Assembly: GCA_951406725.2 (NCBI GenBank)
Contig: OX597842.1
Span: 23,808,001 to 23,872,000, forward strand
Direction: 5' to 3'
Source of the DNA: Octopus vulgaris
Taxonomy: Eukaryota
DNA: 64,000 nucleotides
Numbering within the stretch: the first letter of the stretch is position 1; each line of letters starts with the position of its first letter. A program made the translations under genes and the position numbers. The notes beneath the pieces are model-generated. The model saw nothing but the letters and a program-made list of their open reading frames with translations, searched no databases and was not told the DNA's origin. Below, piece after piece: positions 3,708 to 61,160 of this stretch.

Positions 3708-4730
3708 AGTTGAGAAGGGGTCGGCTTACAACTCTGCAATGTGCGCCGTTATTGTACTCACACAGAATGGAACGAAGTCGGCCTCGGGACAAAGTCCTGA
3801 CTTCAAATACGGCCGAGGTCGACTTTGCTTTTCATACTATTCGGGAAATACCGAGATCCATGTAACTGACTTCTCGCTTCTCTCGACAACTGTTGGTCCT
3901 GTGCCAACACTTAAAACCACCGGGACCACTCTTCGTAAATAGAAACCCCATCATCACCATTACAAGTATTAGTTTAACCTTAAAGGAAATCTCTCAGCTT
4001 ACCGTTTTTTCAATGCCTCATCAACAGAAATTAATGTGGTATTTTTCAATCGGTTTCCCTAACCCTATTTACTCTCATTTTAGAAATTAATTTCCCTTAT
4101 ATCATATATAACAGTCGATCATCGCTTTCCATAAATAACCGATCAACATTTCAATTTGGAAGTTATTAATTAAGACGAGCAATTATAATTTCCTAATGCT
4201 GTCAGGTTCCCGCTTCGAAATAATTACAGTGACAGCGAGAGGTTTACATAATTCTATTATTTATATTGCTATTCGTAGTATTATCATCACCATTACAGAG
4301 TTAAAGTGAATCTTTGTAAACTTACCGTATTCGGATATAAAATGCGAGTCCAGTGATCGCTAATTAAATGCACTAATTAATAAATTAAGGGAACTGTGTC
4401 GTAGATGTTACTTCCCTTCGTATGATTGTATTTCTTTAATTCTCCTATAGATGGCGATACTAACTTGTTGGTGTGTGTGTGTGTGTGTGTATGTATAGTG
4501 GCTGTGTTGTAAGTTCCTTGCTTAGCAACAATATCCTTCCGGGTTCAATCCCGCTCTGTGGCACCTTGGGCAAGTGTCTTCTTCGGATCTATTCTTTTTG
4601 AACGGCAGTTTTTTCTAGTGGTGTCATATGAAATTGTCACCCATAATTATGACCCTAGTATCGATCTATTGCATTTCAATCTGTTTTAGGGTCAGGGTTA
4701 GGGGTGGGGGGAAGGGTATCTTTTATTTCT
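3580..4730. repeat. segmental duplication unit (likely ZNF 5' region), paralog at ~7290-9705
   Basis: Colinear similarity (CAATGTGCGCCGTTATTGTA.., AAACTTACCGTATTCGGATATAAAATGCGAGTCC.., AGATGGCGATACTAAC); minus-strand donor-like GTAAG sites. 4220-4470 is also repeated at 4836-5090. Confidence 0.75.
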
Positions 4731-5479
4731 TCAGAAATCTAAATAAACCCAATCTGTTTCTTAAACGAGGAACATATTCATAAGGCACAGAATGTTTTCA
4801 CCTCAATAGACGTCATTGATTGGTTGAAATTGCAGAAATAATTACAGTGACAGTGAGAGGTTTACATATTTCTATTATTTATATTGCTATTCGTAGTATT
4901 ATTATCACCATTACAGAATTAAAGTGAATCTTTGTAAACTTACCGTATTTAGATATAAAATGCGAGTCCAATGATCGCTAATTAAATGCACTAAATAATA
5001 AATTAAGGGAACTGTGTCGTAGATGTTACTTCCCTTTGTATGATTGTATTTCTTTAATTCCCCAATAGATGGTTCTGCTGACTTGTTGGTTCCGCTCCAG
5101 TGATTTTCTTTGTCCTATTTTTTCCAAATTTACACCAGATGATTTTTATAAAGGGATCTTTTCCTTTTCAACGGCAGATTTCAACAAAATTTCTAGTTAA
5201 CCAAACACTTTTAAACTTCGTATACTGGTAGAATGTGTCAAAATAAAACATTTTTTTTCTCTTGGCTTTCTTGAGAAAATTGTAATTTGTAAGTTTAACG
5301 TAGTTTAATTTTTCGAATTTTAACCAATCAATGGCCTCTATTGAACTAAAATCATTTGCTTAATTCGACTTAATTCATTTGCTTAAAATTGACTTAATTC
5401 GTTTGTCTGTCCTTGATTGTCCCCTCTATGTTTAGCCCCTTATGGGTAGTAAAGAAATATATTTATATATATATTTGCT

Positions 5480-6308: not shown

Positions 6309-7286
<978 letters not shown>

Positions 7287-7450
7287 ACAAACAAATTAGG
7301 AAGAAAGACAAAAATGCGGGGAAAACTGAAATTCTGAAGTTGCGATTTTTGCCAATTTTTTTTCTTGTATCCGAATCTCCATAGCCGAAAAAAGTTGGGG
7401 AAGGGTCAGGTCACGTCTCCGCAATGTGCGCCGTTATTGTATTCACACAA

Positions 7451-7683
7451 GGCGGCAAGCTGGTAGAAACGTTAGCACGCCGGCCAAAATGCGTAGCCGT
7501 ATTTCGTCTGCCGTTACGTTCTGAGTTCAAATTCCGCCAAGGTTGACTTTGCTTTTCATCCTTTCGGGGTCGATAAATTAAGTACCAGTTACGCACTGGG
7601 GATCGATCTAATCGACTTAATCCGTTTGTCTGTCCTTGTTTGTCCCCTCTGTGTTTAGCCCCTTGTGGGTAGTAAAGAAATAA
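7451..7683 (+). mobile_element. SINE family A with ~16-bp TSD
   Basis: TSD TTATTGTA(T/C)TCACACA at 7434-7449 and 7684-7699; the paralogous site near 3749 is empty. Confidence 0.9.
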
Positions 7684-7993
7684 TTATTGTACTCACACAG
7701 AATGGAACGAAGTCAGCCTCGGGACAAAGTCCTGACTTCAAATACGGCCGAGGTCAACTTTGCTTTTCATACCATTCGGGAAATATCCAGATCCATGTAA
7801 TTGAATTCTCACTTGTTTCAACAACTGCTCGCTTTAGGTTAACATTTGAAACCATCATCATCATTACAATTATTAACATCGCTTTAAAGTAAATCTTTGT
7901 CGACTTACCGTTTTATCAATGCCTCATAAAGAACAGGACAGCATTAATTAATGTGGTATTCTTCAATCGGTTTCCTCTGAATTTATCAAATAA

Positions 7994-8665
7994 CTAGCAG
8001 TATCACCCAGCGTTGCTTGGGTTTGTTTCCACCCTTTAGAATTGGAATTTTTGAAAAGTAAAAATTTTGCATTATGTAGCTTGATATTCTCTTTAAGTGA
8101 ACATTTTTCTAGTTGAAATACACCGAAAAATGGCGACACAGCAGTCAAAAAATCGTAAAAAATAGGGATTTTCATAGAGAAAAAGCACCTTTTTGATGTA
8201 AAAAATTTCTGGTCCTTAACATTGTCTGATTTGGGTAGTACTAGCAAACAGTGGTCCCGGTGTGCGTGCTCGCGTACTCGCGCAAGCTAGTCGATCCTTT
8301 CTTTGTGTTATTTACTTTGTTTAAAACACTATTTTCTTTGTGTTTTATTTACTTTGTTTAACAAAACTTATTTACTTTGTGTAAAAAATTTATTTATTTT
8401 GTGTTTTATTTACTTTGTTAGGTAGTCATTATAGGATCGACTACTTACGACTAGCCAGTGCCGATGCGCGACTGCGCGCACCGGGACCACTGTTCGCTAG
8501 TAGTAACCTGATTTGAATTTTATCTTCTACGGAAGGAAGAACAAGCCTTCTTCAATCATACTTTCAATTTTCGTCAACCTGTGCCACAGGGTCTCGAAGG
8601 AGATAGTGTTAGTTGAAGCCTACCAAACCTGCCACACACCATTTTACTCTAATTTCATTTATATA
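7994..8665 (-). mobile_element. non-autonomous Helitron-like element containing a nested MITE
   Basis: Starts CTAGCAGTATCACCCAGCGTTGCTTGGG (minus strand: hairpin then CTAG), same end as the element at 24685. Right boundary approximate. Confidence 0.5.
8233..8506. mobile_element. MITE family 2 (GGTACTACTAGC TIRs, 8-bp TSD)
   Basis: TIR TACTAGCAAACAGTGGTCCCGGTG / CACCGGGACCACTGTTCGCTAGTA; TSD CTGATTTG on both sides. Copies at ~44737-44946 and ~51823-51986. Confidence 0.75.
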
Positions 8666-8789
8666 ACACGTATCAGTCGATCAAAATCAAGATATTAATT
8701 AAGACGAGGAAATAAATTAACCTAATGTTATATTTCCATTTCTAAATAATTACTGTAACATCGAGAAGTTTACATAATTCTATTTTTTT

Positions 8790-9007
8790 CTTTTTTTTTT
8801 TTTTTTTTTTTACTTGTTTCAGTCATTTGACTGCGGCCATGCTGGAGCACCACCTTTAGTCGAGCAAGTCGACCCCGTGACTTATTCTTTGTAAGCCCAG
8901 TACTTATTCTACCAGTCTCTTTTGCCGAACCGCTAAGTGACGGGGACGTAAACACACCAGCATCGGTTGTCAAGCAATGCTAGGGGGACAAACACACACA
9001 CACACAT

Positions 9008-9042
<35 letters not shown>

Positions 9043-9200
9043 CGACAGGCTTCTTTCAGTTTCCGTCTACCAAATCCACTCACAAGGCTTTGGTCGGCCC
9101 GGGGCTATAGCAGAAGACACTTGCCCAAGATGCCACGCAGTGGGATTGAACCCGGAACCATGTGGTTGGTAAGCAAGCTACTTACCACACAGCCACTCCT
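8790..9200 (-). mobile_element. SINE family B
   Basis: Full-length reverse copy; absent at the paralogous position near 4255. Confidence 0.85.
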
Positions 9201-9843
9201 AATTATTTACATTATTAGCAATAGTATTATTATCACCATTACAGCCTTAAAGTGAATCTTTGTAAACTTACCGTATTCGGATATAAAATGCGAGTCCAAT
9301 GATCGCTAATTAAATACACTAATTAATAAATTAAGGAAACTGTGTTGTAGAAGTTACTTCCCTTCGTATGACTGTATTTCTATAATTCTCCCATAGATGG
9401 CGATACTAACTTGTTGGTGTGTGTGTGTATATGTATAGTGGCTGTGTTGTAAGTTCCTTGCTTAGCAACAATATCCTTCCGGGTTCAATCCCGCTCTGTG
9501 GCAAGTTCGGCAAGTGTCTTCTTTGGATCTTTTCTTTTTGAACGGCAGTTTTTTCTAGCAGTGTCATATGAAATTGTCACCCATAATTATGACCCTAGTA
9601 TCGATCTATTGCATTTCAATCTATTTTAGGGTTAGGGTTGGGTGGAAGGGTATCTTTTTTTCTTCACAAATGTAAATAAACCCAATCTGTTTCTTAAACG
9701 AGGGACATATATATGTGTGTATATATATACATATATATGTGTGTATATATATACATATATATGTGTGTATATATATACATATATATGTGTGTATATATAT
9801 ACATATATATGTGTGTATATATATATATAATTATGATAATACA

Positions 9844-9990
9844 GGTTCTTTGCAACAAGTTGCTTAAACCACATACCGAAAATTTTAGAAATAGCAGCCA
9901 AAAGACTACTATGTAAAAGGAAATAGTAGTCTTTGGCTGCTATTTCTAAAATTTTCGGTATGTGGTTTAAGCAACTTGTTGCAAAAAACC
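9844..9990. repeat. near-perfect hairpin, ~64-bp arms, 10-nt loop
   Basis: TTTGCAACAAGTTGCTTAAACCACATACCG...GACTACTAT [GTAAAAGGAA] ATAGTAGTC...GTTGCAAA, one 1-nt indel between arms. Confidence 0.9.
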
Positions 9991-10128
9991 CTTATTTTTA
10001 TAATTATATAATTTTTACCGTATATGGTCCTTTTCCATACCGAAATACTACTTGGTGAAATTTGTTGATTTTATTAAATTAATTATAATTCACCTTTTAT
10101 CTGTATTGACTATATATATATATATGTA

Positions 10129-10202
<74 letters not shown>

Positions 10203-10314
10203 TATATACATATATATATATAGTCAATACAGATATAGGGTGAAGTGACCGCATGTGTACCGTTGGCGATTTTTTTCCTATGTCTTCTCTTCTCTGGATC
10301 TTTCCTTCTCCTAT

Positions 10315-10349
10315 GTTTCCGACGAAGAGCTCTGCTTGAAACGTTAAAC
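10315..10349 (+). ncRNA. minimal type-I hammerhead ribozyme motif (Penelope-type)
   Basis: GTTT-CCGACGA-A-GAGC(TCT)GCTT-GAAAC-GT-T-AAAC: stem I GTTT/AAAC, palindromic ACGT stem III, U4C core variant. Confidence 0.6.
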
Positions 10350-10441
10350 CCTCCTTCTTTCCTAAGCGTCCAATAATACTATATTTGTTCCACATCCTCG
10401 CGTTGTTGTGCTTTTTTGTGCCTTCTTGTTTGAATTAACTT

Positions 10442-10488
<47 letters not shown>

Positions 10489-10489
10489 A

Positions 10490-10530
<41 letters not shown>

Positions 10531-10565
10531 TGATAGATTTTCATAGCATTTTTTCCGATGGCCGT

Positions 10566-10624
10566 ATAACTGAAGAGATGGCGGCGTGGATTTCCATCTC
10601 GACATCCGAAACTCGGAATTTTAT
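10566..10624 (+). ncRNA. type-I hammerhead ribozyme motif
   Basis: ATAA-CTGAAGA-13-bp imperfect stem II (GATGGCGGCGTGG attt CCATCTCGACATC)-C-GAAA-CTCGGAA-TT-TTAT; stem III imperfect. Confidence 0.5.
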
Positions 10625-10748
10625 CATGGCTACCGAATAATTGTCACATATTACATTTACAGATATATATATAAATATATATATATATACACACACACAT
10701 AACTTTACCTGTTACCCTTTATATAGATAGATCGATATATACATACAT

Positions 10749-10979
10749 AGGCATAGGAGTGGCTGTGTGGTAAGTAGCTTGCCTACGAACCATATGGTCC
10801 CGGGTTCAGTTCCACTGCATGGCACCTTGGGCAAGTGTCTTCTACTATAGCTTCGGGCCGACCAAAGCCTTGTGAGTGGATTTGGTAGATGGAAACAAGA
10901 AGAAGCCTGTCGTATATGTGTATATATATACATATGTACCGCTGAGTCCTTTGCCTCATGTTTTTATTTTTATTTTGAT

Positions 10980-11041
<62 letters not shown>

Positions 11042-11262
11042 GTGTGTGTATATGTTTGTGTGTCTGTGTTTGTCCTCCCAGCATCGCTTGACAATACTGG
11101 TGTGTTTACTTCCCTGTAACTTAGCGGTTTGGCAAAAGTGACCGATAGAATAAGTACTAGGCTTACAAAGAATAAGCTCTGGGGTCGATTTACTCGACTA
11201 TAAAAGCGGTGCTCCAGCATGGCCGCAGTCAAATGACTGAAACAAGTAAAAGAATAAAAGAA
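10749..11262 (+). mobile_element. SINE family B with expanded internal microsatellite
   Basis: Head and tail match family B; flanked by a duplication of ACACACATAACTTTACCTGTTACCCTTTATAT (~10693 and ~11278). Confidence 0.8.
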
Positions 11263-11595
11263 TATATATATATATACACACACATAACTTTACCTGTTAC
11301 CCTTTATATGGATGGATCGATATATATATATATATACATACATAGATATATATGTAAAGCACCTAGCACACACGGTAAACTGATTAGCATTAGGAAGAGT
11401 ATAGATCCAAAGAATCCCAGCCAAATCAAACAGGAATCTGGTGCAGCACACTGGCTTTCCAGTCACACTGCCCCACCGATGCCAGCATGAAAAATAAAGG
11501 GTTGATAGTGAGGTTGACAATGATGTCGGTGATCATGGTCATGAAGATGATGATGATGATGATGAAAATACAAAATAGACAATGATAAATAATAA

Positions 11596-11779
11596 ATGCA
11601 CCCTTTTAAAGCCTAGCTAGGCTCTTCGGCCCGGTTTCCCGGTTTCTATGGCATATGTGTTCCCCAGCTGGATGAAGTGATTTGCTCCAGAACACAACGC
11701 ATTGCCCGGTCCATGAATGGAAACCACAATCTTACGATCACGGTGTTGACACCCTACCCACTAAGCCACATGCCTCCAC
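11596..11779 (-). mobile_element. SINE family C variant (internally deleted)
   Basis: Ends CCACTAAGCCACATGCCTCCACA and contains GGCCCGGTTTCCCGGTTTC, like the copy at 24203-24505. Confidence 0.6.
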
Positions 11780-12068
11780 AAGATAGACAAAACTAACATC
11801 AATTTAATTTTTCATTCTTTATTCCCATTTCTTAATCACCTCATAATAAATTCTTCAAGAATCCAGCACAGTTATCTTCAGAAATCAAAGACATTGCCGT
11901 GTTGATATATTTCCATAGATGTATGATGTTCAGGATGATATTGATGGATTTGATGTTGACATTGACGAAACTGAAGTTGATAACATCAAATCTGAAGAGA
12001 AAAAAAAAACTGCTTTTTGCAGACAAAATAGTCACACTTGTGTGTGAATACTCACATGTATACTCAAG

Positions 12069-12482
12069 GGGCAAGCTGGCAGAATCGTTAGCACGCCGGG
12101 CAAAATGTGTGGACGTATTTCATATGCCGTTACGTTCTGGGTTCAAATTCCGCCGAGGTCGACTTTGCCTTTCATCCTTTCGGGGTCGATTAAATAAGTA
12201 CCAGTTACACACTGGGGTCGATGTAATCGACTTAATCCATTTGTCTGTGCTTGTTTGTCCTCTCTGTGTTTAGCCCTTTGTGGGTAGTAAAGAAATAGGT
12301 ATTTCGTCTGCCGTTACTTTCTGAGTTCAAATTCAGCCGAGGTTGACTTTGCCTTTCATCATTTCAGAGTCAATTAAATAAGTACCAGTTACACACTGGG
12401 GTCGATATAATCGACTTAATCCATTTGTCTGTCCTTGTTTGTCCTCTCTGAATTTAGCCCCTTGTGGGTAGTAAAGAAATAG
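12069..12482 (+). mobile_element. SINE-A dimer (full head copy plus a second unit from the internal target site) inserted in the last zinc finger
   Basis: First unit ends GAAATAG (~12299), second restarts at GTATTTCGTCTGCCG. Outer TSD GTATACTCAAG at 12058-12068 and 12483-12493. Confidence 0.85.
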
Positions 12483-12493
12483 GTATACTCAAG

Positions 12494-13522
12494 TAGCCTT
12501 TTTGAGAGAATGATTTACCACAGATATCACAAAGTTATGGTTTCTCTCCAGTATGAACACGCTTATGTATTGTTATGCTAGCTCTATAAGAGAATGATTT
12601 ACCACAGATATCACACTGATATGGCTTCTCTCCTGTATGAATACGCTTATGTATAGATATACTAGCTCTATAAGAGAAAGACTCACCACAGATGTTGCAC
12701 TGGTACGGCTTTTTTCTAGTATGAACTCGCTTATGTGTAGTTAATTCACAATGTCTAATGAAAGATTTACCACAGATATTACAATGATAAGATTTCTCTC
12801 CTGTATGAATAAGTTTGTGACTAGTTAAATTGCTGTTACAAGAGAATGATTTACCACAGGTATCACACTGATATGGCTTCTCACCTGTATGAATACGTTT
12901 GTGTGCTTTCAAGTTATTAGATTCGGAGAATGATTTACCACAGATATCACACTGATATGGTGTCTCTCCTGTATGTGTACGTTTGTGTTTAGTCACGACG
13001 CTCTTTTGAGAGAATGATTTACCACATATCACACTGATATGGTTTCTCACCTGTATGAATACATTTGTGTATTTTCAAGTGCCCATCTTCAGAGAATGAT
13101 TTCCCGCAGGTATTGCAAAGATATGGCTTTTCTCCCGTCTGTGTACGTCTGTGTCTAGTTAAGTTACCACTTTGAGAGAATGATTTACCACAGATATCAC
13201 AACAATATGGCTTCTCACCTTTATATGTATGTTTGTGTTTAGTCAAGTGACAATTTTGAGAAAATGATGTACCACAGATATTACAATGATATAGCTTCTC
13301 ACCTGTATGAATACGTTTGTGACTAGTTAAAACGCTATTTTCAGAAAATGATTTACCACAGATATCACATTGATATGGTTGCTCTCCTGTATCAATATTT
13401 TTTCTTGTAATTAATTTATTCATTATGAGAGAATAATTTGTCATACATATCGTAGTGATAGTGTTTTTTCCATTTCTATGAATATGTTCTATAAATATGT
13501 GCTGTTGTGTTACTATTTTCAC
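12494..13522 (-). pseudogene. C2H2 zinc-finger gene, frameshifted (about 11 fingers)
   Basis: ORFs 13019-13522 and 12535-13050 carry consecutive [14 protein letters not shown] fingers joined by a frameshift near 13025 (CDMW). Stop at 12535; final finger split by the SINE-A dimer. Acceptor-like TTTCTATTTCAG near 14168. Confidence 0.8.
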
Positions 13523-14776: not shown

Positions 14777-15001
14777 TATTGCTTTGTGTTCTCGCCGTGG
14801 ATTGTTGAACAATTCTCAAATATGTCCAGGGCGAAACTCGATTCAAAATAACTCAAACATTTTCTCTCACTTTTCATTCATTGTTCGTAGTGTGATCCAC
14901 TTATAATTATGAAATTCTTTCTTGAAATAAACTTGTTGGATCTCTATCATTTCACGAACATCAAATAGGAAATTATACTTCTAATATACATATATTATCT
15001 G

Positions 15002-15184
15002 TTTCTTTATTACCCACAAGGGGCTAAACATAGAGGGGACAAACAAGGACAGACAAACAGATTAAGTCGATTACATCGATCCCCAATGCATAACTGGTGC
15101 TTATTTAATCGACCCCGAAAGGATGAAAAGCAAAGTCGACCTCGGCGGAATTTGAACTCAGAACATAACGGCAGACGAAATACG
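15002..15184 (-). mobile_element. 3' part of SINE-A split by Tx1 LINE insertion
   Basis: B-box through tail of SINE-A; the matching head lies at 20524-20575. Confidence 0.85.
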
Positions 15185-15424
15185 AATTTCTTTATTGCCC
15201 ACCGGGGTCCAAACATAGATATGGACAGTACAACTGATGGGATCAGTGAATCGATATGATTTTACATAAATGTGACTTTAAAAATAAAATACAATACATA
15301 AAAAATCGAATGGAATACACAGTACAAAAACAATACAAATGAAGCGATGATCAAGTTACGCTCCGATCCCACAAGCCCTGATCTACCGCTGAAACCTTTT
15401 TATTTTCCCTTTTTTTCCGTCTAT

Positions 15425-18400
15425 TCACACGGTTCCTTGCACGCACAACACTCGTGCAACATGCTTCCGTCTCTTTTGGAACGTACACTCCGACAGACAC
15501 CTCTTCTCCAGCCACAGTTTCCTTTTCAAATGAAAAGAAAAAAAAGGATCGTAAATTGTGACCAGAGATAAAGTTGCCTGTCTTAATTCCTTTTATCCTA
15601 GTCTTCCATACTGCCTCTTTTGCTATTGCTACAACTGTGAGAAAACAATTCTTACCTTCGTTCATTAGAACTCCCGGTGGGTCAATTTTTACAATTGACA
15701 CAGTCGACAGCCGTACTCTTCCTTCGCCGGACAACAGGTGTTCAGCATAAGCCCACATTTCAGTTATCTCCGGTTACTGAACAATAGCGTGAGGGACGGT
15801 TTACCTGCCCCCCCCCCCGCATCTTGGACAGGTCGGCAACTGACGTTTACCATGTCTTGCAAGCTAATCCCAAATGGGCAAGGCACCTCTGTGGCATTGC
15901 CAGGTTAAGGACTTTTGGAAGTTGTCCAACGTTCTCAACCCGAATGTACGATGAAACAAGCTGTCCAGTTGAATAAATCTGAGACCTAGAGTCGACCCCA
16001 GGCCATCGTCGCATTCAGACTCTACCAACCCACTATATAAAATCCGTGTGGAACCCCCACCACTGGCGTTGCCCGAGCGCCGGAACAGCAAGAGGGCCTT
16101 ACGGCACTCTTTATGCTACTCACTCGACCTCAGTCTACGAGAACACCAGGCTTCCTGTTCGCAAAAACTCTTGAACTCAGGGAACATTTGTCTGGCTAGC
16201 AGAGACCACGCCCGTTCACTATCCAGGAGAATCCAGAGGTGCCTCAACCTCAACGCATGTCTGCGCATCATTAACCAAGGCATCCCTAAACCTCCCTTTA
16301 AAGGCTTTTGACAGCTGACAGAGCGTTTCACAAGTGGCGACCTGCCCTTCCACAAAAAGCGAAAGAGCTGTCTCTCCAACCTGATCAACCACGAATCTGG
16401 ACAGGGCACGACGGTCAGGTGGTAGGTAATGACCGATGCGATAAACACATTGGCCACCTCCGCCCTCCCCTTCAGGGATAGCCACCGCCAAGACCAGGTC
16501 TTGACTACTGCAGCCACCCTGCTCAATACCTCCGTCCAGTTCTGGAGGCCTGGTCCAAACCAGACTCCCAGCAATTTAACCGGTCCCTCCGTCCAGCGCC
16601 CAACAACGCTGTCTGAAGGCATCGACTTGCCAAACCAGGTGCCGAGCTGCAAGCCGACCGACTTTTCCCGGTTAATCTTTGCTCCTGCTACCTCCTCGTA
16701 AGCCTCAATAGTCTTACCTACTTCACGTAGGCGTGCTACTGTGGTTACACTAATAGTGATATCATCCGCGAAAGCCGTAATAAACTCCTCTAGTCCTGGT
16801 TCTCTCGGGATGCCACTCAACCTTCGCAGTAATGGCTCGAGAGCCATCACATACAAAAGTGGTGAAAGCGGACATCCTTGACGAACCGAGCGTTTGATGT
16901 AGAACGGCTTCGAAAGGAAACCGTTCACCCGAACTATCGAGTCAATGTTGTGGTACAAAGCGATAAACCACCTGAGGAAGCCAAGACCCAGGCCAAACCG
17001 CGCAAGTACAGTCGCTAGGTATCGATGGTCAACCCTATCAAAAGCTTTAGACTGGTCCATGCACCAATGCCCCACCTTTGCCAGATTTATTACCAACCCT
17101 CGCTATGGTATAGCGAATAAGATGGAGGGTATCCTGAATGGTTCTGCCTGGGATGGCACATGTCTGTGCCTCCCCGACTATACCATTTGCGAAACGCGCC
17201 AACCTTTTTGCTAGAACCTTGGCCAAAATCTTCACTTCTGCGTTTAACAGAGTGATGCGCCTGAAATTTTCTAGAACGTCCCCCTTGTCCGGTCCTTTCT
17301 GACCAACGTCACTACTCCCTGGCGCACAGATCTGGGGATAGACCCATTCTGTTTCCAGTTCACGTACACGTCAGTCAGTAGTTGCCCGAACAAGTCTGGC
17401 ATACATTTATACAGCTCGTACGGAAGACCATCAAGCCCTGGTGACTTACCCGCTTTATAATCAGCCAAAGCCTCCATCACCTCCTCAGGTGTGATTGGCC
17501 CTTCGCAAGACTCCGCATCCGACCCCGAGAGGCACGGCAGCCCGGCAAGAATGTCCTCGAGGGCTCTCCCACCACCAGGACAGCCGTCACCCCCGAACAT
17601 CTGGGCGAAGTACTCCCGAAAGACCTCACACATTTTCTCGGGTTCGTTTACCAAGACACCATTTTGATTCGTCAAAGACCGAATAGAGGAACTATTTCCT
17701 TGCCGAGCTCCCACCACTCGGGCCCATCCAGCGGCCTTGATTCCTTCACTTCCCATTGCACGTAACTTAGCTCTGGCAATACTTCCCATGTGGTGGGCTT
17801 CAAGATGCTGGTTTAACTCCAGTCTTTTCACCCTTGCTTGGTCTGCATTACCAGTCCTCCAGGCTTCTTCTAGTTCCTTAACTAGACCATCTCCTATTTT
17901 ATGTCCCTTCTTAGCTAAACTTATGCTAAACCTAATAGACTCATATTTGATGGCTCTTTTTAGGGCGTACCACCATTTGTTATTAATGATGGTACCTGTA
18001 AATGCCCTCTGTATTAACATCTTGATCCGCTTTCTGTACTCCTCAATCGCCAAAAGGGACGTATTGAGTTTCCAGTAGCCAGATCCCTGTCTATGCAACT
18101 TATCTACCGTCAGTTTACAGGTAACCATCTTGTGGTCACTGTAGCTGACTAGAAAAAACTGTGGACACTCAACTATGGACTTATCTTTTTCTCTAATTAA
18201 AATCCTATCTAGATATGTTCTGGTAGACCCATCACTATTTGACCACGTCCACTGTGAAGTGTTCGGGTGCTCCAACCTATATGGATCTGCTAGCTGAAAT
18301 TGACTTAGCAGATCACGAAAGCCTGGGTTACACTTTCTGTTCATGTTCGAGCTCGAGCCAACACAATCTGTGTGTGCTGCACATATTGTATTAGAGTCTC

Positions 18401-18805
18401 CTAACACTACTAGTGAATGCGACGTGGCTAGGAACTTTCCCAGGTCACAAAAATATTCAGTTTGCGGGCCAATAATGTTTGGTGTGTAAATAGCGACCAG
18501 CCTGATTGTCTTGCCACAACTGAATGTCAAGTCGAGAACGACCAGCCTGCCTTCTGGGTCTACCAACTTTTTCTCGGCTACCGGTTTCTTTTTAGTAGGA
18601 CCAACACCCCACCTCCTGCCCGACTCGGAGAAACGTATTTCTCGTAGCCGTTCAGGAGGGGCAGCAGACCTCTTGGCCCCTTCACCCGGGTTTCCGTTGC
18701 AACAATTACATCCAAATTTTTCGACCTGATATCATTTAGAAAGCGTCCTTGCTTCCAGCTTGACAACAGGCCACGAACATTTATACAACCAATGTGAATA
18801 GACAT
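15425..18805 (-). pseudogene. Tx1 ORF2 (AP endonuclease + reverse transcriptase), multiple frameshifts
   Basis: [72 protein letters not shown] spread over ORFs starting at 18805, 18566, 17235, 17096, 16091 and 15758. 3' end approximate. Confidence 0.88.
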
Positions 18806-18819
18806 AACTTACCTGTTTA

Positions 18820-20345
18820 ATCAGGATTGTCCGGTGGAGAGGAACCCTCCACCTTTTTTTGATCCAGGGTCGGAGGTGGACGGTCTTGGGAAATAGATTT
18901 GTCAAATCCCGTCTCACCACCGACACAGAATTATCAGGTGGAGGGGGAATCTCCACCTTTTCCTTTTCTCGCGGGATCGGGGCTGGTAATCCATGAAATA
19001 TCGACTTGTTAAAATCTAATCTCAATGAAGATACTGTCTTTCTGTATCTGTTTTGTAAAATTCTATGAGTCTTATTTGAGACTTCATATATGTCGTAATT
19101 GATAAATTCCTCTGAAAGGTTATCTATTTTTGTTACAGTCTTTATCAGTTGAATGTCTCTCATGAGCTCAGTATTTTTAGTATATACGGCTATTATGCCT
19201 TTTTCTTCTTTTTCTCTTCTGGCAGTCTTTTTTGGTCATTGTTCTGTAGTAGTCGCCGCTCTCGGCTGAGTTGCTGGTTGTATTTTCTTTTTGTTTGTTG
19301 TTTTTTCTCATCTGTTTCTTCTTTTTCTTCTTCCTCTTTGTCTTTTTTCTCCTCTTCCTCCTCTTCTGCATTTTCCTTGCAGCTCCTTCGAATGTGGCCT
19401 AATTGACCACATAAAAAACATCGAGGTTTTCGGCCCTCAACAAACACCACGAGGTTCTCCTCCCCTACCTCAATTTTCTCGGGAATTGCTTGAATTATTT
19501 TAGGGTCCGCTTGAATGAGAAGATTAATTGTTTGACCATCCCAGTGTGGGTTTTCCGTAGCGGTAGCCTGGAGGAAAGTAATTTTTTCTTCCTCTTTGAT
19601 TAGGACTGCCGCCAACAACCACATAGGATCCACTTCCGGGGGGACCCTTGTAATTTTTTATTCTGGACGTTCTCATCCCCATATAATAGGGGATGAGCTC
19701 CACGTCGTTCGTTTTCAGCGTTTCTACTGAGTTCTTGTGTGCTATTTCTTTATTGGTGAACCTTACTTCCACCGTTCCGAATTTCTTGCCTCTTCTCAGA
19801 TAAACTACGTCGCCCCATATTGGCTTTAAGCACTTTTCTATTTTCTCTTCTGACATTCTTTCAATTTTTCTTTTTTGTAGACAATATGTTTTGAAAATTA
19901 TTGTTTTTTGCTTTTCTTCTTGTAATAACTTTTGCGGAGGTTCAATTTTCACAACGTTGCCAGTTATTTTCATCATTTGGCTGTATTTCATAAAGTCGCT
20001 TTTATTCGTTGACAGCAGCCGGGTTCCACCCCCAGCAGCCAACGCAAAACTTTTTTTCCCATTTTTTGGTTCTGTCTGGATGCTAGGTACATCAATTATT
20101 CTTTTTGACACAATGCCTTTGTTCTCTGGCAAAGTCGGAAACTCTTCTGGTGAAAGTTCTGACGAGCTTTCAGACACATCTCCAAAAAAATCAAATATAT
20201 TATCTATTCTGCTATTCTTTCTTGTAGCGGGGGAAACCCTTATTTCCCTGTCTGTAGTTGGCTCCTCGCCGGACATGTATTTCCTCCTCTCAACAGGAGA
20301 AACAAGTATTTCTGCTCCAACGGTAGACTCCATGCTAGACGACAT
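18820..20345 (-). pseudogene. Tx1 ORF1 (gag-like, CCHC zinc knuckle), frameshifted
   Basis: ORFs 19524-20372 and 19193-19633 with RCFLCGQLGHIRRSC (CX2CX4HX4C) and an E/K-rich tract; located upstream of ORF2. Confidence 0.75.
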
Positions 20346-20523
20346 TCTTCCCCCCAAAGGGGGAATGAACAACGCGTGCTACTACAAGCACTAAGTGTTT
20401 TCAAATGAGAACTCCAACAGTTAAGTTATTCAACAGTTTAACAAGAAACAACAGTTATTAGAAACAGCAGTTATTAACAATATTAACACCAAGAAGCAAC
20501 AATTTTTACCACGAACATATGTG

Positions 20524-20575
20524 CGGCAGACGAAATACGCCCGACGTGCTATAACATTTCTGCCAGCTCGCCGCC
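20524..20575 (-). mobile_element. 5' head of the split SINE-A
   Basis: Minus strand GGCGGCGAGCTGGCAGAAATGTTATAGCACGTCGGGCGTATTTCGTCTGCCG. Confidence 0.85.
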
Positions 20576-20599
20576 TTGTGTAATATTAGTCATGAGAAG

Positions 20600-25425: not shown

Positions 25426-28400
25426 GGATGCACCTTCTTGCATCCTAAACTGTGCTAAACTTCTGTGTCACTAAGGATGTGCCTGAACCCAGAATGCAAC
25501 CACCACCATCTGAAGGGCACAAAACGATCGCAAAATAAATATAAACAGCAACAGAGGAGATCTACGACAACAACAAAGACAAAATACAACCACGTTTCCC
25601 CTCCTACAATCAAACAACGAAGACAGAACCATGAAAAAAACCATAACACCAAATAACACCAACATGAAATATGTATCCTCTGACCAAGTGACAAACCAAA
25701 GAGGTAACTCTTTTTTACTGACTTACGTAGAAAATATGAAGGCCGATCTAAGCCAGGAGATCCAACGAGCTATCAGCAACCACCTATGCAAATCACAAGG
25801 ACCACACACCCACTACCAACAAGAAAATCATACACACACAGCTCCATACAAGAACTACCCACATTGTTACCACTGAACAACATAAAACATAACTTAGAAC
25901 AATGCAAACATCAAACTTCCCTTACCTCAACATTCCTGTTAAATGTACGTGGCATCAACCCATCAATTATTGCCCAAAAATGGAAGATCCCATATATAGA
26001 GAGTTGGCTTGCCGAAACGGCACATTGCTTCCCTTTCTTTATCCTTACCGAGACTCACCTGAACAACACCCATATGGACGCCTAGGTGAAAATAAAAGAT
26101 TTCACCATTGTTCGTGCGGATCGCACAGACTGAAATAAGGGAGGGACAACCATCTTTATCCATGACTCCTTTTCACTTGATGCCAAAGACATATTTTCCA
26201 ATGGCTATTGTGAATCGGTATTACTATTCAGCAAGGCCAAGGACATAATCATTGTTGGTCTTTACAGGCCTCCCCAAGCACCTCTAAAGAGCTTTGAAGA
26301 GTGCCTCAGCAAAGTCAAATCCTTCCTTCGGAAGTACAACTCCGGAAACATAGTAGTGATAGGTGATTTTAACCTCCCTCATGTGAACTGGCCCACAAAT
26401 ACTCTGAAGTTAGGCAAATGCTCTACATCAGATAGAGCAGCAGCAGAACTGCTCTTTAATCTAATGGATGAATACTTCCTGACTCAGCTACTGCTCAAAC
26501 AAACGAGACAGAATAAAACGATCTTGGATCTGGTATTGACCAATCACTCTAGCTTCGTTCACAGTATTTCAGTTGAAAAAACTCTCCTCTCAGACAACGA
26601 CATGATACTCTGCAATTTTAATTCCCGACATATAAAAACCAAACCAGCCAATCCCACTCCATGGCACTCATTTGACAACATAAACTTCCACAAAGCGGAC
26701 TGGGGAGCAATCAGAAAGGATCTGTCTTTCATCGACTGGTCTTTTACTCTCAATTCCACCCATATTGAGACCGCATGGCAGCACTTTGAAAACATTGTCA
26801 CTTACAAATGCTCTAAACACGCTCCCACGAAATCTACTAACACAAACAGAAACCGGCTCCCTAAAAAGAAAAAAACACTCATCAGGCGCATCAAAAGACT
26901 CAACAAAAAAATCAACCAATTAAAATATTCCCACACACAACATCCACATTCAACAACAATGAAAAGGCTAGAGCTGGAAAAACTTCATCTGCAGACCGAC
27001 ATGAAAACCTCCATTGAAAATCAAAGAGCTGTGGAGGAACAGTGGGTAATCAAAAACATCAAACAGAACCCAAAAGTGTTCTATTCTTATGCAAATAAGC
27101 ATAAAACCACTGTCTCACCCATTGGGCCATTGACTGATGATAACGGCATTCCTCAACACGATGCTAAAGAAATGGCAGAAATACTGCAGAAACAATACTG
27201 CTCTGTCTTTAGTGTCCCCACTGACATTGACGTAAGAGAAGCGAACGAAGTTGACTCCCAATATAAAATCTCAGACATAACCTTCATTGCCACTGACATC
27301 ATAGCAGCAATAAATGAGGTCAAATACTATTCTGCTGTAGGCCCTGATAGATTCCCCGCTAGTCTCCTGAAGGAATGTAGACACCAACTTGCAGTCCCTC
27401 TGACCAACCTCTGGAGAAATTCGTTAGACGCAGGTTATATACCGAAACAGTTTCTATCCCAGTCAGTCATCCCGGTTTTCAAACAGGGAAACAGATCCCT
27501 CGCACTCAACTATCGCCCAATCTCACTCACCTCCCACATCATTAAAGTGTTTGAAAGAGTGTTAAGATCAAGGATAGCTGACTTCCTGGAGACCCACAAA
27601 CTCCTAAATGCAAATCAGCATGGCTTTCGCTGTGGCAGGGACTGTCTAACACAGCTCTTAAACCACATTGAAGATGTACTCAAAGCCTTGCGAACATGTT
27701 CGAATTCTGATGTCATATATCTTGACTTCAGTAAAGCATTTGACAGGGTAGACCATAATATCCTACTCTCAAAATTGGGAAACGTTGGAATCCGAGGAAA
27801 AGTTCTACACTGGATTATGTATTTCCTGGCGAATAGAACATAACATGTTGTAGTTGATGGAGTCCACTTAAGCCCAGCAAAAGTCACCAGCGGTGTCCCC
27901 CAGGGGACTGTCTTGGTTCCGCTACTCTTCATAATTTATATAAACGACCTTTCCAGTGTCGTACATTACTGCAAAGTGAAAATATTTGCTGATGACACTA
28001 AGCTCCAGCAAATCGTCAATGAAGAAGCAGACTGAACTCAACTCCAGTCTGATCTATATGCTGTGAGTCAATGGGCAGACAGAAACAAAATGCAACTGAA
28101 TGAGGGAAAATTTGAGCTGATGCATTTTGGAAGAAATTCCTCACTAAAACAGCCATACTCTCTTCCTTCAGGGGAACCGCTCACAGCCTCTAACAATATC
28201 AGAGACCTGGGTGCAATTGTTGATGACGATCTCAGTTGGAGTGCACACATCAACAAGAAGGTCGATATAGCTCGTAGGATGAGTTCCTGGATCTTAAGAA
28301 CTTTCCGGTCCAGAGAACAAGGTGTCGTCATACCACTTTTCTCCTCCTTTGTACGGCCACACCTCGAATACTGCTGCCCACTGTGGTCTCCCCATACAAG

Positions 28401-28957
28401 ACAAAGCATCTTGAGGATTGAATCACCCCAGAGGGCACTCACTAAACGAATTGAAGGCATGGCTGCTCTCGATTATTGGGATCGCCTTAAAGCCTTGAAA
28501 CTCTACTCTCTCCAGCGTCGCCGTGAGCGGTACATCATTTGTACGATGTGGAGAATATACCGCCAACTTTGCCCAAACGACCTTAACATTAGCTTCAAGG
28601 TTCATCCAAGACTGGGACCATGGGCCATACGTCCCCTGCCCAATTCAAGATCACAGCATACATGCACACTGCAACATAATTTCTTTTCCTCAACAGGCCC
28701 TGCCCTATTTAACATTGTCCGAAAGAGATCAAAGAGGAAAAGGATCCGATCAACTTTAAACGGAGTCTGGATAGATTCCTTCAAAGAATACCAGATAAGC
28801 CACCCATAAATGGATACAACTCACTCAACAAAAACTCACTACTTGAATGGACCATAAACAAAACTTGACTTAAACAGGATTCAAATAATCCTATCAGGTG
28901 GTGCTATTAAGTTAGACATGGCCTGGACCAATCTTTGGTCAAAACATATCTAAGTTT
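25426..28957 (+). mobile_element. CR1-group LINE, 5'-truncated, decayed (ORF1 C-terminus + APE-RT ORF2)
   Basis: Cys/His ORF1 remnant (FLHPKLC..CNHHHLKG), [53 protein letters not shown]; several in-frame stops. Related to the element at 35001-38172. Confidence 0.88.
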
Positions 28958-28971
28958 ATACATATACATAT

Positions 28972-29848
28972 ATCATCATCATCGTTTAACGTCCGCTTTC
29001 CATGCTAGCATGGGTTGGACGGTTCAACTGGGGTCTGGGAAGCCCGAAGGCTGCACCAGGCCAGTCTGATCTGGCAGTGTTTCTACAGCTGGATGCCCTT
29101 CCTAACGCCAACCACTCCATGAGTGTAGTGGGTGCTTTTTATGTGCCACCGACACAGGTGCCAGACGAGGCTGGCGAACGGCCACGCTCGGATGGTGTTT
29201 TTTATGTGCCACCGACACAGGTGCCAGACGAGGCTGGCGAACGGCTACGCTCGGATGGTGTTTTTTATGTGCCACCGGAACGGAGGCCAGGCGAGGCTGG
29301 CACGGCCACGATGGGATGGTGTTTGTTACGTGCCCACAGCACGGAGGCCAGTTGATGCGGTACTGGCTATGGCCACATTCGGATGGTTTCCTTATGTGTC
29401 ACCAGCACTGGTACAACAAAGATACAAATTCCATTGATGTTCATCGATTTTGATTTGATTTTCACTTGCCTCAACAGGTCTTCACAAGTGTCCCAAGAAG
29501 GAGGGTATGCACAGGTGGATGACTACGTCCCAGGTAGGGGCCATGGATTATGGCCTCACGTGTCCTGCCGGGTCTTCTCGCGCACAGCATACTTCCAAAG
29601 GTCTCGGTCTCTGGTCATTTCCTCAGTGAGACCTAAAGCGCGAAGGTCGTTCTTCACCACCTCGTCCCAGGTTTTCCTGGGTCTACCTCTTCCACAGGTT
29701 CCCTCAACCGCTAGGGTGTGGCAGTTTTTCAAACAACTATCTTCATCCATTCTTACTACGTGTCCATACCAGCGTAGACGCCTCTCTTGCACACCACATC
29801 TGATAATTCTTAGGTCCAACTTTTCTCTCAAGGCACTTACACTCTGTT

Positions 29849-29849
<1 letters not shown>
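28972..29849 (-). mobile_element. 5'-truncated RTE LINE
   Basis: [19 protein letters not shown] (ORF 29556-29999) plus 3' UTR and (GAT)n tail; same family as 22197. Confidence 0.85.
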
Positions 29850-30601
<752 letters not shown>

Positions 30602-30705
30602 ATATTATATTAGAGACAAAACCACTATTATGCAAATCAAACAAAGAAAGACTTAAGCCAATACATAAAATAATTTATATAAAGTAAAATTTAACAATTA
30701 TAAAT

Positions 30706-30759
30706 AACCACTACGATCGTTTCGTGTCAGCACATCTTTGAGACATTCTTCAGGTGGTT
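30706..30759 (-). ncRNA. type-I hammerhead ribozyme motif, intact core
   Basis: Reverse complement of 30925-30978. Confidence 0.8.
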
Positions 30760-30924
30760 TCAAAACCTAAAATATAAGATATAAATAATGTAAATAAAAA
30801 TTTACTTATAATAAACTCTATTATTAAATATGATTATATCGAAATCGGTTATAATGTTAATAATAGAGTTTATTATAAGTAAATTTTTATTTAGATTATT
30901 TATATCTTATATTTTAGGTTTTGA

Positions 30925-30978
30925 AACCACCTGAAGAATGTCTCAAAGATGTGCTGACACGAAACGATCGTAGTGGTT
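30925..30978 (+). ncRNA. type-I hammerhead ribozyme motif, intact core
   Basis: AACCAC-CTGAAGA-aTGTC(..)GACAc-GAAA-CGATCG-TA-GTGGTT: 6-bp stem I, palindromic stem III ACGATCGT, GUA cleavage triplet. Confidence 0.8.
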
Positions 30979-31168
30979 ATTTATAATTGTTAAATTTTAC
31001 TTTATATAAATTATTTTATGTATTGGCTTAAGTCTTTCTTTGTTTGATTTGCATAATAGTGGTTTTATCTCTAATATAATATAATATAATATTTTACTAT
31101 AAAATTGGATTCAATCCTAAATCTGATTTGTCTGTGTAAATTTGGATTTATTCCCTAATATTTATTAT

Positions 31169-31169
<1 letters not shown>

Positions 31170-31261
<92 letters not shown>

Positions 31262-31634
31262 TACATATATATATACATACATATATATATATATACATAC
31301 ATATATATACACATACATATATATATACATATATATACATACATACATATATATACATACATATAATATATATACATATATATATACACACATACATATA
31401 TATATACATATATATATACATATATATACATACATACATATATATACATACATATAATATATATACATATATATATACATACTTATATATATATATACAC
31501 ATATATATACATATATATATACATGTATATACATATATATATATACACATATATATATATACATATATATACACATATATATATACATATATATATATAC
31601 ATACATATATACACACATATATATATATATACAC

Positions 31635-31665
<31 letters not shown>

Positions 31666-31860
31666 CACACATATATATATATATATACATATATATATAC
31701 ATACATATATATATACTTACATATATATACATACATATATATAAATATATACATATATATATACATACATATATATATACTTACATATACATACATACAT
31801 ATATATAAATATATATGTACATACATATATATATATATATACATACATATATATATATAC

Positions 31861-31900
<40 letters not shown>

Positions 31901-32106
31901 ACATATATATACATACATATATACATACATATATATATACATACATATATATATACATATATATACATACATATATATATACATATATATATATACATAT
32001 ATATATATACATATACATATATATATATACATATATATACATATACATATATATACATATACATATATATACATATATATACATATATATATACATATAT
32101 ATATAC

Positions 32107-32161
<55 letters not shown>

Positions 32162-32180
32162 TATATACATACATATATAT
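31170..32180. repeat. (TA)n/(TACA) microsatellite
   Basis: ~1 kb TA-rich tract. Confidence 0.95.
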
Positions 32181-33645
32181 ATGACCTCACACATCAGCAA
32201 GGTCATGGAACGAATAGTCAGAAGGAAGCTGATCACCTTCCTTGAAGAGAATGACTTGCTGCCCGACACCCAACATGGTTTCCGACCAGGGAGAAGCTGT
32301 TTAACTCAGCTCCTACAACACTATGACTGGGTGCTGAAACGGCTGCTCAACCACTCAAATGTGGAAGTGATATATCTCGACTTTGCGAAGGCCTTTGATA
32401 AAGTCGATCATGGAATGATATGTCACAAACTGCGTGATCTCAACATAGTTGGAAAACTGGGAGAATAGCTTCATGACTTTCTGAAGGATAGAAGTCAGGT
32501 GGTAGTAGCCAATGGGGCCACCTCCATTAACACACAAATAGTGAGCGGTGTTCCGCAGGGCACTGTTCTGGGACCACTACTGTTCATAATGGCCCTCTCA
32601 GACATGCCCTCAACCACGCAGAGAGCCACGATCACAAGTTATGCAGATGATACAAAAGTGTCACAGGCAATACAGAACCCTGAGGACACTAAACACCTGC
32701 AATGTGAGCTGGACGAAATATACAAGTGGGCTGAAAAGAATAGCATGCAGTTCAATGCTGGAAAGTTTCAAGCTTTATACTATCAGCATGCAAAACTGAA
32801 TGCAATACCCAATGAATACACTGGACCCGGAGGGATTGCAATCCCAGAGGCACAATCAGTGCGTGACCTGGGTATTCACATGAGTGATGACGCGACCTTT
32901 CATGTACATGTTGCTAAACTGACAATGAAATGTAGACGGCTGGCTGGATGGATTCTTAGAACCTTTAGAACAAGAGAACAAGAAACCATGATGGTCCTCT
33001 GGAAGACACTTGTCCTAAGCCACTTTGACTATTGCTCTCAGCTATGGTCACCATCCAGTGTCAAGTTGATCACAGAACTTGAGGCGATCCAACGAAGCTA
33101 CACAAAGAAGATAGCCTCTATGCAGAATGTAAGCTACTGGGAAAGACTCAAGAGATTAAAATTATATTCCCTGGAGCGTAGGCGGGAAAGATATGCCATA
33201 ATATACATCTGGAAGATCCTGGAGGGAAGTGTCCTGAACTTTGGCATCGAGAGTTACGCAAATGCCAGAACTGGGCGCCACTGCGTGGTGCCTAGGACTC
33301 CAAACCTGCCATCAAGATGTAGGACAAGATTCTGTGATAGCCTGGGCTTCCGAGGCCCACAGCTCTTCAATATCCTCCCGAAGAACCTGAGAGACCTGCA
33401 TGGGGTGGATACAGATGTCTTTAAAATGAAGCTGGATCTCTTCCTGTCAGGTGTCCCAGATGAACCAACTTCACGGCAGGAGGGGCAGAAGAGGGCAGCT
33501 GCATCGAACTCTCTCATGCACCAAATAGCAGTTGCTAGAAAGCCTCCATGAAGTGAAACCAAGTAGCAACACCAAATGGCGGTGCCCCAGCATGGCCACA
33601 GCTCATAAGCTGAAACTAGAATCAATCAATCAATCAATCAATCAA
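32181..33645 (+). mobile_element. 5'-truncated CR1-group LINE (second family), RT with one in-frame stop
   Basis: [26 protein letters not shown] at 32466, [24 protein letters not shown]; (TCAA)n tail. Confidence 0.88.
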
Positions 33646-38000: not shown

Positions 38001-38172
38001 TGGAAGGGCTGATGCCTTGGGCATTAAGCAGAAATGTTGAGGCGAGAGTGGATGGTTTTAATTGTTTTGGTGATTTGTTTATTTGATTGCTTTTTAATGG
38101 CATGTGTAGTGGGGTAATAGTGGTGGATGGCGGTGGGTGATAGCTCGGATGTTTTTTTCCAGTTCTTTTGCT
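35001..38172 (-). mobile_element. young CR1-group LINE, 5'-truncated at end of ORF1
   Basis: Intact ORF2, 3' stem-loop and TTCTAAGTTA-type tail, flanked on both sides by (TA)n. Confidence 0.9.
35086..38103 (-). CDS. LINE ORF2 polyprotein (AP endonuclease + reverse transcriptase), ~1005 aa, uninterrupted
   Basis: From ATG at 38103 (MPLKSNQ): [74 protein letters not shown]. The first ~70 aa of the track ORF are microsatellite. Confidence 0.9.
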
Positions 38173-38186
38173 AGATATATATATAC

Positions 38187-38217
<31 letters not shown>

Positions 38218-38540
38218 CATATATATATACATACATATATATACATATATATATATATATACACATATATATATATACATATATATATATATACATATAT
38301 ATATACATACATATATATACATATATATATATATACATATATATATACAATACATATATATATATATACACATGCATATATACATACATATATGTATTTA
38401 TAATATATATATACATACATATATTTATATATATGTATATATATACATATATATATATATATGTATATACATACATATATATACATGCAAATATATACAT
38501 ACATATAAATACATACAAACATATATATATATATATATAT
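38173..38540. repeat. (TA)n/(TACA) microsatellite
   Basis: TA-rich tract. Confidence 0.95.
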
Positions 38541-41285: not shown

Positions 41286-41825
41286 TATAGAGAGAAATGG
41301 ATGGTGATGGAGATGTATGAGGACATACACAAAAGGTAGTGGTGGTGGGGGAATATTAGTGGTACAGAGGATAGAGGGGGATGTTTCATAGAAGTGTGAG
41401 GGGCTTATGAATGTGTGTGTGTTACTATATCCTTGCTTTGAGACTGTGTGATAGTTGTGGGTGTCACTGCCATGCAAGCAATGTCCATCGCCAATCTGAC
41501 ATAAAAACATGTTAGGTCATGGGGAAATATTTTAGTTTGAAACAGGTGAAGGTTGGCAACAGGAAGGACATCTGGACAGTGAAAAATTCACTTCAATAAA
41601 TATCATCTCACCAATGAGAGATTGGCAAATGTGGACATGGAGAACAATGATGACAGATGACTGGTATGGTTTGTCTCTCATGAAGGTTTAAGGAAGTAGT
41701 TACGCTGCTTCTATAAGCAAATGATTTGCCAAATGTTTCAATGATATGGCTTCTCTCATGTATGAAACCATTTGAGACTAGACAAAGTGCTATTTTTGGA
41801 AAATGATTTACCACAGGTATTACAG

Positions 41826-43439: not shown

Positions 43440-43752
43440 AATTTTCCTTTTTCTCGTCACAGTACACAAAGGTTTTCCTTCTTCTCGTATATTGCTCTTA
43501 CCAAATATTTTTACTGATATATCTCCATCAAAAGTGTTCTTTGTTAATATCTGAAGATGCTGCAAACTGCCTTCTTAATTACCTTAACTCATTAACATTC
43601 AAATTACTGTCAAATGTAATGATTATTTATTCAAATTCTACTCAATTAATCATTCATTATCTTATTGCTTTAAGATTTCAACGATGTGATTCTTTATGTT
43701 TATAAGACATTGCATGGTGAGTGTAAGAGGCCAGATGTGGGCAGTTTTAAGA

Positions 43753-45468: not shown

Positions 45469-45745
45469 CCAACCAGCGTATCAAGTGAAGCCTAGGAGGT
45501 CTCTACATATGCTAGAAATGGCAGCCAAATCTCTTCAATTTACACGCAAACGAGAATTGCGGTGGTGAAATATCGCAGATTCAGTTTTAGGGTTTTTTTT
45601 TTTTTTTGGTACCTTTTTTACAAACCTGTTCCAACATTTCACGGGATTCTTTTTATTAAAACTTCGATCGTTGTATGCCTAGTCGTCATAATGTTGCCAC
45701 CATGCACAAAATGCCAACTTCTCTGATTGAGTAAAAATGCCCTTC

Positions 45746-46243
45746 TACTCTTTTACTTGTTTCAGTCATTTGACTGTGGCCATGCTGGAGCACCACCTTT
45801 AGTCGAGCAAATCGACCCCAGGACTTAATCTTTGGAAGCCTAGTACTTTATACTATCGTTCACTTTTGCCGAACTGCTAGGTTACGGGGACGTAAACACA
45901 CACATACATATATATATATATCATCATTATCATCGTTTAACGTCTGCTTTCCATGCTAGTATGGGTTGGACGGTTTTGACTGAGGTCTGGCGAACCAGAT
46001 GGCTGCACCATCTTGATTTGGCAGAGTTTCTACAGCTGGATGCCCTTCCTAACACCAACCATTCCAAGAGTGTAGTGGGTGCTTTTTACGTGCCAGGGCG
46101 TCTTTCAGTTTCCGTCTACCAAATCCACTCCCAAGATTTTGGTCAGCCTACTCCTGAAGTAGAAGGGGGCCATGCAAGGGGACTGAACCCTGAACCTGTG
46201 TGGTTAGGAAGCAAGCTTCTTACCACACAGTCACGTCAATGCC
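45746..46243 (-). mobile_element. composite SINE-B with RTE 3' tail
   Basis: SINE-B tail 45746-45900, RTE tail 45921-46096, SINE-B head 46100-46243. Confidence 0.7.

Positions 46244-59925: not shown

Positions 59926-61160
<1,235 letters not shown>

Follow-up and report, generated by a model that had tools for sequence, protein, structure and literature searches.

The closest described precedent for a LINE and a SINE sharing one landing site is the crocodilian Tx1-Mar/SINEU system (Kojima 2015, PMC4494074). There, one site in a multicopy repeat serves both a Tx1-type LINE and a SINE, a TSD lies sandwiched between SINE copies in tandem, and SINE preference ranges from strong (313/347) to weak (39/297). 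The paper also lists other target-specific elements of the Tx1 clade, namely Xenopus Tx1L in Tx1D, Keno in U2 genes, and Kibi and Koshi in microsatellites. Under the stringent type of the common-tail rule, the 3' end of a SINE resembles that of its partner LINE (PMC3747384, in the part available), and pairing of the cDNA with the upstream target has been proposed for the 5' junction of R2 (PMC6895275, likewise in part). Head-to-tail copies and internal tandem duplications are described for jerboa Dip/B1 multimers, Alu and squamate sSats in the available part of PMC10702118; there the units are full-length or the multimers are ascribed to unequal recombination, and that part draws no link to the site of a partner LINE. 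Target sharing between Tx1 elements and SINEs, the flanking of a TSD by tandem SINEs, and the formation of multimers by SINEs all belong to what is already known. For Octopus vulgaris, 13 recently active L1-Tx1 families have been counted in PMC13282606, whose available part does not give their targets, and a term search of its supplement returned no match to a dimer or nested insertion. The literature searched, which was that outside Repbase and most subscription papers, yielded no account of a Tx1-type LINE with its target in the partner SINE, nor of the dimer described here.

The octopus locus lies in a 64-kb window (the whole stretch of DNA analysed) of AT-rich animal DNA with microsatellites and several LINEs. 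Eight short non-coding units or fragments of one repeat are present on both strands; we keep for it the label SINE-A, which, like the label Tx1, comes from the initial annotation. TSDs were identified at two SINE-A loci, of 11 bp and 16 bp. Dispersed short copies with TSDs are what a SINE would show, and the tRNA-headed class (SINE2) is the candidate type. An A-box-like motif at 12077..12087 (+) is presumably part of a putative pol III internal promoter, judged against the usual consensus with one mismatch allowed; what we take to be a B-box-like motif was located by eye at 12140..12151 (+) and exceeds the usual consensus by one base. A regular expression for the strict B-box pattern gave no match in SINE-A. 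ARAGORN detected no tRNA, and an Rfam search of 7300-12600 returned only sub-threshold hits, none of them on SINE-A.

We confirmed a SINE-A dimer at 12067-12482. Unit 1 (12067..12298, +) is full length, with head, internal site, body and LINE-like tail, and is followed by a head-less unit 2 (12299..12482, +), which begins at GTATTTCG and differs from unit 1 at 15 of 184 positions; TRF reported a period of 184 with 2.0 copies over 12115-12486. As in the crocodilian system, the site involved is also used by a LINE. In contrast to that system, where a Mariner DNA transposon provides the target and the SINEs have poly(A) ends (PMC4494074), the site here is in the head region of the SINE itself, the tail shared with the LINE is not poly(A), and the second unit lacks its head.

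The LINE (15185..20523, −) is decayed, with several frameshifts and stops. Its ORF1 carries a CCHC knuckle and its ORF2 an APE-type endonuclease, an RT and a weak zf-RVT motif; the domain matches were zf-CCHC, RVT_1 and, weakly, zf-RVT (E 0.012), and the best PDB match of the endonuclease was the L1 endonuclease (E 4e-5). The 107 homologues found, the best of which is 52% identical, carry PF03372, PF00078 and PF13966. The element thus has the layout of the L1/Tx1 group: ORF1 plus ORF2, APE endonuclease, RT and a C-terminal zinc motif. In a quick RT tree of 28 rows, 27 of them chosen from the 107 homologues, it sided with fish elements that have a CCHC/ZCCHC3-type ORF1, apart from the Transposase_22 elements (SH-aLRT 84-90); since this tree holds no named Tx1 row, the assignment stops at L1/Tx1-type. 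The LINE sits in another SINE-A in the same orientation, between its body and tail (14999..15184, −), which start with the 3' TSD copy, and its head (20524..20577, −), which contains the 5' TSD copy and lacks 13 bp immediately upstream of that copy. The two TSD copies (20524-20539 and 15169-15184, minus strand) are an exact 16-mer. In sitting inside a repeat between clean TSD copies of 16 bp, this APE-type LINE resembles the target-specific Tx1-clade elements; it differs from them in that the targets described in the available part of PMC4494074 include no SINE, and in that the window holds one copy of the LINE, on which its target specificity rests.

The 3' tail of this LINE (15186..15235, −) is 65-71% identical to the SINE-A tails. 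Its last ~49 nt matched them at 31-35 of 48-49 nt, compared with 92% between SINE tails, and this score was equalled by 0-6 of 1000 shuffles. Because the LINE–SINE identity falls below that among the SINEs, the segment appears to be a true LINE tail and the source of the SINE tail, rather than a SINE fragment. No other non-SINE sequence in the window matches the SINE-A tail, and the other LINE-type frames do not share it. These frames, of RT/endonuclease type (26134-33551, +, and 35086-38397, −; one open for 1103 aa), lie beside long (TA)n-rich tracts. Taken with the common-tail rule in the part of PMC3747384 available, the shared tail makes this L1/Tx1-type LINE the likely partner of SINE-A, and we infer from the two tails that SINE-A would be mobilised in trans by the LINE whose tail it carries. 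The match between the tails is an addition of this analysis to the earlier reading. The pair resembles the stringent common-tail pairs described there in having similar 3' ends, and departs from them in that the match spans only ~49 nt at 65-71% and folding revealed no conserved stem-loop.

We then compared the inner junction of the dimer with the LINE insertion. G12298 is the last base of unit 1, and GTATTTCGTCTGCCG follows directly at 12299-12313, so that the junction matches the LINE TSD at 15 of 16 positions, with the first C replaced by G; the initial annotation, which had read the end of unit 1 as directly adjoined by the TSD sequence minus its first C, was correct here. It had also placed an upstream copy of the site near 12115, and we located this copy, CGTATTTCATATGCCG, at 12114..12129 (+), with two mismatches to the LINE TSD. 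Past the shared tail end AAAGAAAT, two nucleotides precede GTATTTCG in both the LINE (TC) and the SINE (AG), and in this register the junction and the LINE site agree to within 1 nt. The earlier claim that both events occurred at the same nucleotide therefore holds to within 1 nt; with the 13-bp deletion just upstream in the host SINE-A, the first C is assignable to either target or tail. Both breakpoints of the dimer are landmarks of retrotransposition, one coinciding precisely with the SINE 3' end and the other with the LINE site. A 43-aa frame spanning the junction (12235-12363, minus strand) had no match in protein databases, and two 22-nt junction patterns had none in prokaryotic genome contigs; SINE DNA of animals would hardly be present in such collections, so that these negatives do not bear on how frequent the junction is. 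As a separate observation, 13 bp are missing in the host SINE of the LINE (20540) and 5 bp in copy 40752 (40730, −), in both cases directly upstream of the internal site, where unit 1 carries substitutions; these deletions and substitutions may point to a place that is fragile or frequently nicked.

An 11-bp TSD, which is another addition to the earlier reading, brackets the whole dimer. Its left copy, GTATACTCAAG, lies at 12058..12068 (+) in host zinc-finger DNA, and its right copy at 12483..12493 (+); the two match at 11 of 11 positions and are flush with both boundaries of the dimer, the last 2 nt of the left copy possibly doubling as the first 2 nt of the SINE. The duplicated sequence begins with GTAT and reads as zinc-finger codons, and the flanks continue the finger across the dimer on the minus strand, which identifies the GTAT after unit 2 as host DNA and not as SINE tail. 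The host is a decayed C2H2 zinc-finger array (12505..13397, −) with a frameshift and stops, the last finger of which is interrupted by the dimer. It is one of five tandem arrays in the window that are built on similar 84-bp units (6668-7284, 12505-13397, 41739-43342, 47224-49518 and 60185-61046).

These features suggest a sequence of events that we favour tentatively. The LINE machinery would tend to open DNA at or beside GTAT/NTAT, one such site lying within SINE-A, between the A-box-like and B-box-like motifs. A SINE-A monomer would first have entered the last finger of the zinc-finger gene, leaving the 11-bp TSD seen today. Soon after, an RNA transcribed from SINE-A of the same sub-lineage, perhaps even from the copy at this locus, may have been primed at the internal site, presumably after a nick there, and its cDNA may have paired with the homologous upstream DNA, giving a seamless 5' junction and a head + unit + unit arrangement in which the site occurs twice. 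This layout is the one expected from priming at the site with a 5' end resolved by homology. R2 provides the model for such a homology-closed junction (PMC6895275, available part); it differs in its restriction-like endonuclease and its 28S rDNA target, so that the comparison is one of analogy and not of membership. We place priming of a SINE-A RNA by the LINE machinery at the internal site of this locus, with homology closing the 5' end, at somewhat under an even chance, whereas the junction itself was probably made by this machinery at this site, either here or in a source dimer.

The latter case is that of a dimeric source that was transcribed whole and inserted once, its junction having arisen beforehand at another locus, with the favoured mechanism as the simplest route; the present locus would then not be an independent targeting event. 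The single TSD around the whole dimer agrees with this, as does the absence of a T4 run inside the dimer: the first run of at least four T after the head, a T5 and possible pol III stop, is at 12499..12503 (+). AAAGAAATAG-GTAT is found at the inner junction, at the outer junction and at the end of copy 40752 (three of eight, against a background of 0.0068 per position), and GTAT after the tails is what would be predicted for read-through RNAs that carry GGTAT and use it for priming. At copy 40752, a 7-nt flank match from 6 nt past the tail (null P ~0.04) hints weakly that the RNA included GTAT, and dimeric SINE families are known (PMC10702118, in the part available). Nonetheless, none of the SINE-A copies in the window is a second dimer, and equal residence predicts equal private change in the two units, where 5 and 10 changes were seen (p 0.30, not decisive). 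We regard a dimer made beforehand as rather unlikely.

Returning to the reading with priming in place, we asked how far the breakpoints constrain it. Among 82 breakpoint pairs with at least 4 nt of microhomology, one matches both observed ends. If the SINE 3' end is taken as the right breakpoint, only two microhomology candidates are left, one of which is the observed pair; the two breakpoint coincidences are thus linked through GTAT and are not independent. The initial annotation had offered, as its alternative, a GGTAT microhomology between the tail and the internal site. The homology is real over the four nucleotides GTAT and does not extend to five, base 12114 being C, and its right-hand copy comes from the host DNA rather than from the tail. 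A tandem duplication at the DNA level, in which slippage or microhomology-mediated repair used the GTAT at 12115 and that of the host TSD while retrotransposition supplied only a monomer, can make use of this 4-nt homology at both ends and would account for units that are sisters with common derived states at 12209, 12239 and 12261. SINE-derived tandem duplications are known in squamates (available part of PMC10702118), and a similar short microhomology is present in another repeat of the window, a trimer at 55370-55765. Such a duplication must, on the other hand, have chosen one of 82 equally good pairs and have hit the site of the partner LINE by chance, and it also requires an early event, given the near family-level divergence of the units. 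We consider it unlikely.

The relationship between the two units bears on all of these readings. Units 1 and 2 were sisters in five of five trees, three of which took six full SINE-A bodies or parts of them and one of which added two fragments, with support that ranged from 65 to 87 across measures and was never firm. SH-aLRT/UFBoot values under K2P were 84/81, 87/75, 76/65 without CpG columns and 84/85 for the putative insert; the GTR tree gave 75/76. The states shared exclusively by the two units are 12239 (a CpG) and 12261, that at 12209 being present also in copy 39; two exclusive shared states are rarely expected from a random donor, and are also found in two other pairs of 15. In an AU test, grouping unit 1 with the host SINE-A of the LINE was not rejected (p 0.20), and grouping it with copy 7448 gave p 0.03. 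The earlier reading of a second, independent event was too strong, as the units are sisters, if never firmly, and other routes give the same sequence. Its own refuting pattern, in which the units are each other's closest relatives, is weakly present: the two are sisters, yet unit 1 shows 15 differences to unit 2 and equally 15 to copy 7448. Private changes numbered 3 in the putative insert (12130-12298) versus 10 in unit 2 (one-sided p 0.046, two-sided 0.09, post hoc), and 5 versus 10 over the whole unit (p 0.30). The divergence between the units (15/184) is within the family range of 14-25, which indicates that the dimer formed near the active period of SINE-A. The diverged head of unit 1 was rejected as proof of an older host, as the head of copy 39 is as diverged (10/64 versus 8/63). 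Four of the ten private changes of unit 2 fall within 12 nt (12361-12372, +), three of them G to A.

Sister units would also result from a single TPRT event with a template jump, in which the RT stopped at the internal GTAT and resumed on another RNA of the same source gene, at its 3' end. A full 5' unit and a 5'-truncated 3' unit within one TSD is the layout of a template-switch chimera (PMC4494074 and PMC6895275, in the parts available). The stop at the site of the LINE is, however, left unexplained unless the RNA already ended in GTAT, and a hairpin around the internal site, considered as a cause of targeting or RT pausing, had no folding advantage over shuffled sequences (z −0.42 and 0.11). 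We consider this route quite improbable. An assembly artefact, with a collapsed or doubled read, might be suspected in a repeat-rich assembly with an N gap (100 N) at 52946-53045, but the 15 differences between the units over 184 positions, several of which are at CpG sites, and the intact TSDs on both sides speak against it; we give it hardly any weight.

For priming at the internal site, the rest of the SINE-A family is also informative. The site is occupied in two of the five copies that have both head and site, in one by the LINE and in the other by the extra unit. At copy 7448 we found a 16-bp TSD with one mismatch, like that of the LINE, confirmed by the empty paralogue at 3735-3860; the latter and 7415-7800 are paralogous segments, 3735-3860 being the empty site of the 7448 insertion. 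The target of this insertion is an older repeat with a stretch ~85% like the B-box region of SINE-A. In the window as a whole, one of eight SINE-A 3' ends joins the internal site and seven join non-SINE-A DNA, so that the site specificity claimed for the SINE was an overstatement, and at one end in eight it does not behave as a site-specific SINE of the SINEU-3 type, in which most copies are at the target of the partner. GTAT follows three of the eight 3' ends, and TTAT or ATAT follows two others; these flanks fit a relaxed preference for GTAT/NTAT, or RNAs with a terminal GGTAT, and not strict specificity. A 24-bp unit resembling internal SINE-A sequence, repeated 2.6 times, was noted at 5345-5405 (+), at the 5' end of the truncated copy 5387.

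Taken together, priming in place is supported by the fit of one pair in 82, the tail match, the TSD of copy 7448, the occupation of two sites in five, and the 3 versus 10 private changes. Against it stand the sister relationship of the units, the seven of eight ends located elsewhere, the linked coincidences, the 5 versus 10 changes (p 0.30), the multimers of another family and the single copy of the LINE. The priming at the LINE target with a homology-resolved 5' junction that had first been proposed therefore agrees with the junction landmarks, the shared tail and the layout, and it is weakened by the sister units and by not being the only mechanism with this outcome.

A wider reading, which we hold to be possible but somewhat doubtful, is a self-targeting loop of SINE and LINE. 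SINE-A would hold both the tail of the partner LINE and the preferred target of that LINE, acting as its own safe landing site in which the LINE nests; SINE RNAs would add 184-bp units at a fixed base, regenerating the site each time, and read-through RNAs ending in GGTAT would reinforce the targeting. If this were so, a SINE that serves as insertion site for its own helper would be a new kind of harmless Tx1-type target, it would offer a direct retrotransposition route to SINE multimers and to SINE-derived tandem arrays or satellites, and it would supply a natural target of an APE endonuclease for assay. If the dimer arose instead by local duplication, it would be ordinary, and only the LINE inserted in its partner SINE would stay notable.

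The trimer mentioned above (55370-55765, +) is degraded and belongs to a second SINE-type repeat; in it, the tails are joined to one internal site through short microhomology. That site is a different one, and the presence of this trimer in another repeat family indicates that such multimers are not unique to SINE-A. Other copies of this repeat are at 289-466, 1527, 8797-8991, 11070, 23572, 41083, 45742-45901 and 58924-59116. The window also contains a 789-bp inverted repeat (43752-44540 and 52157-52945) whose arms are 96% complementary, the second arm ending at the 100-N gap.
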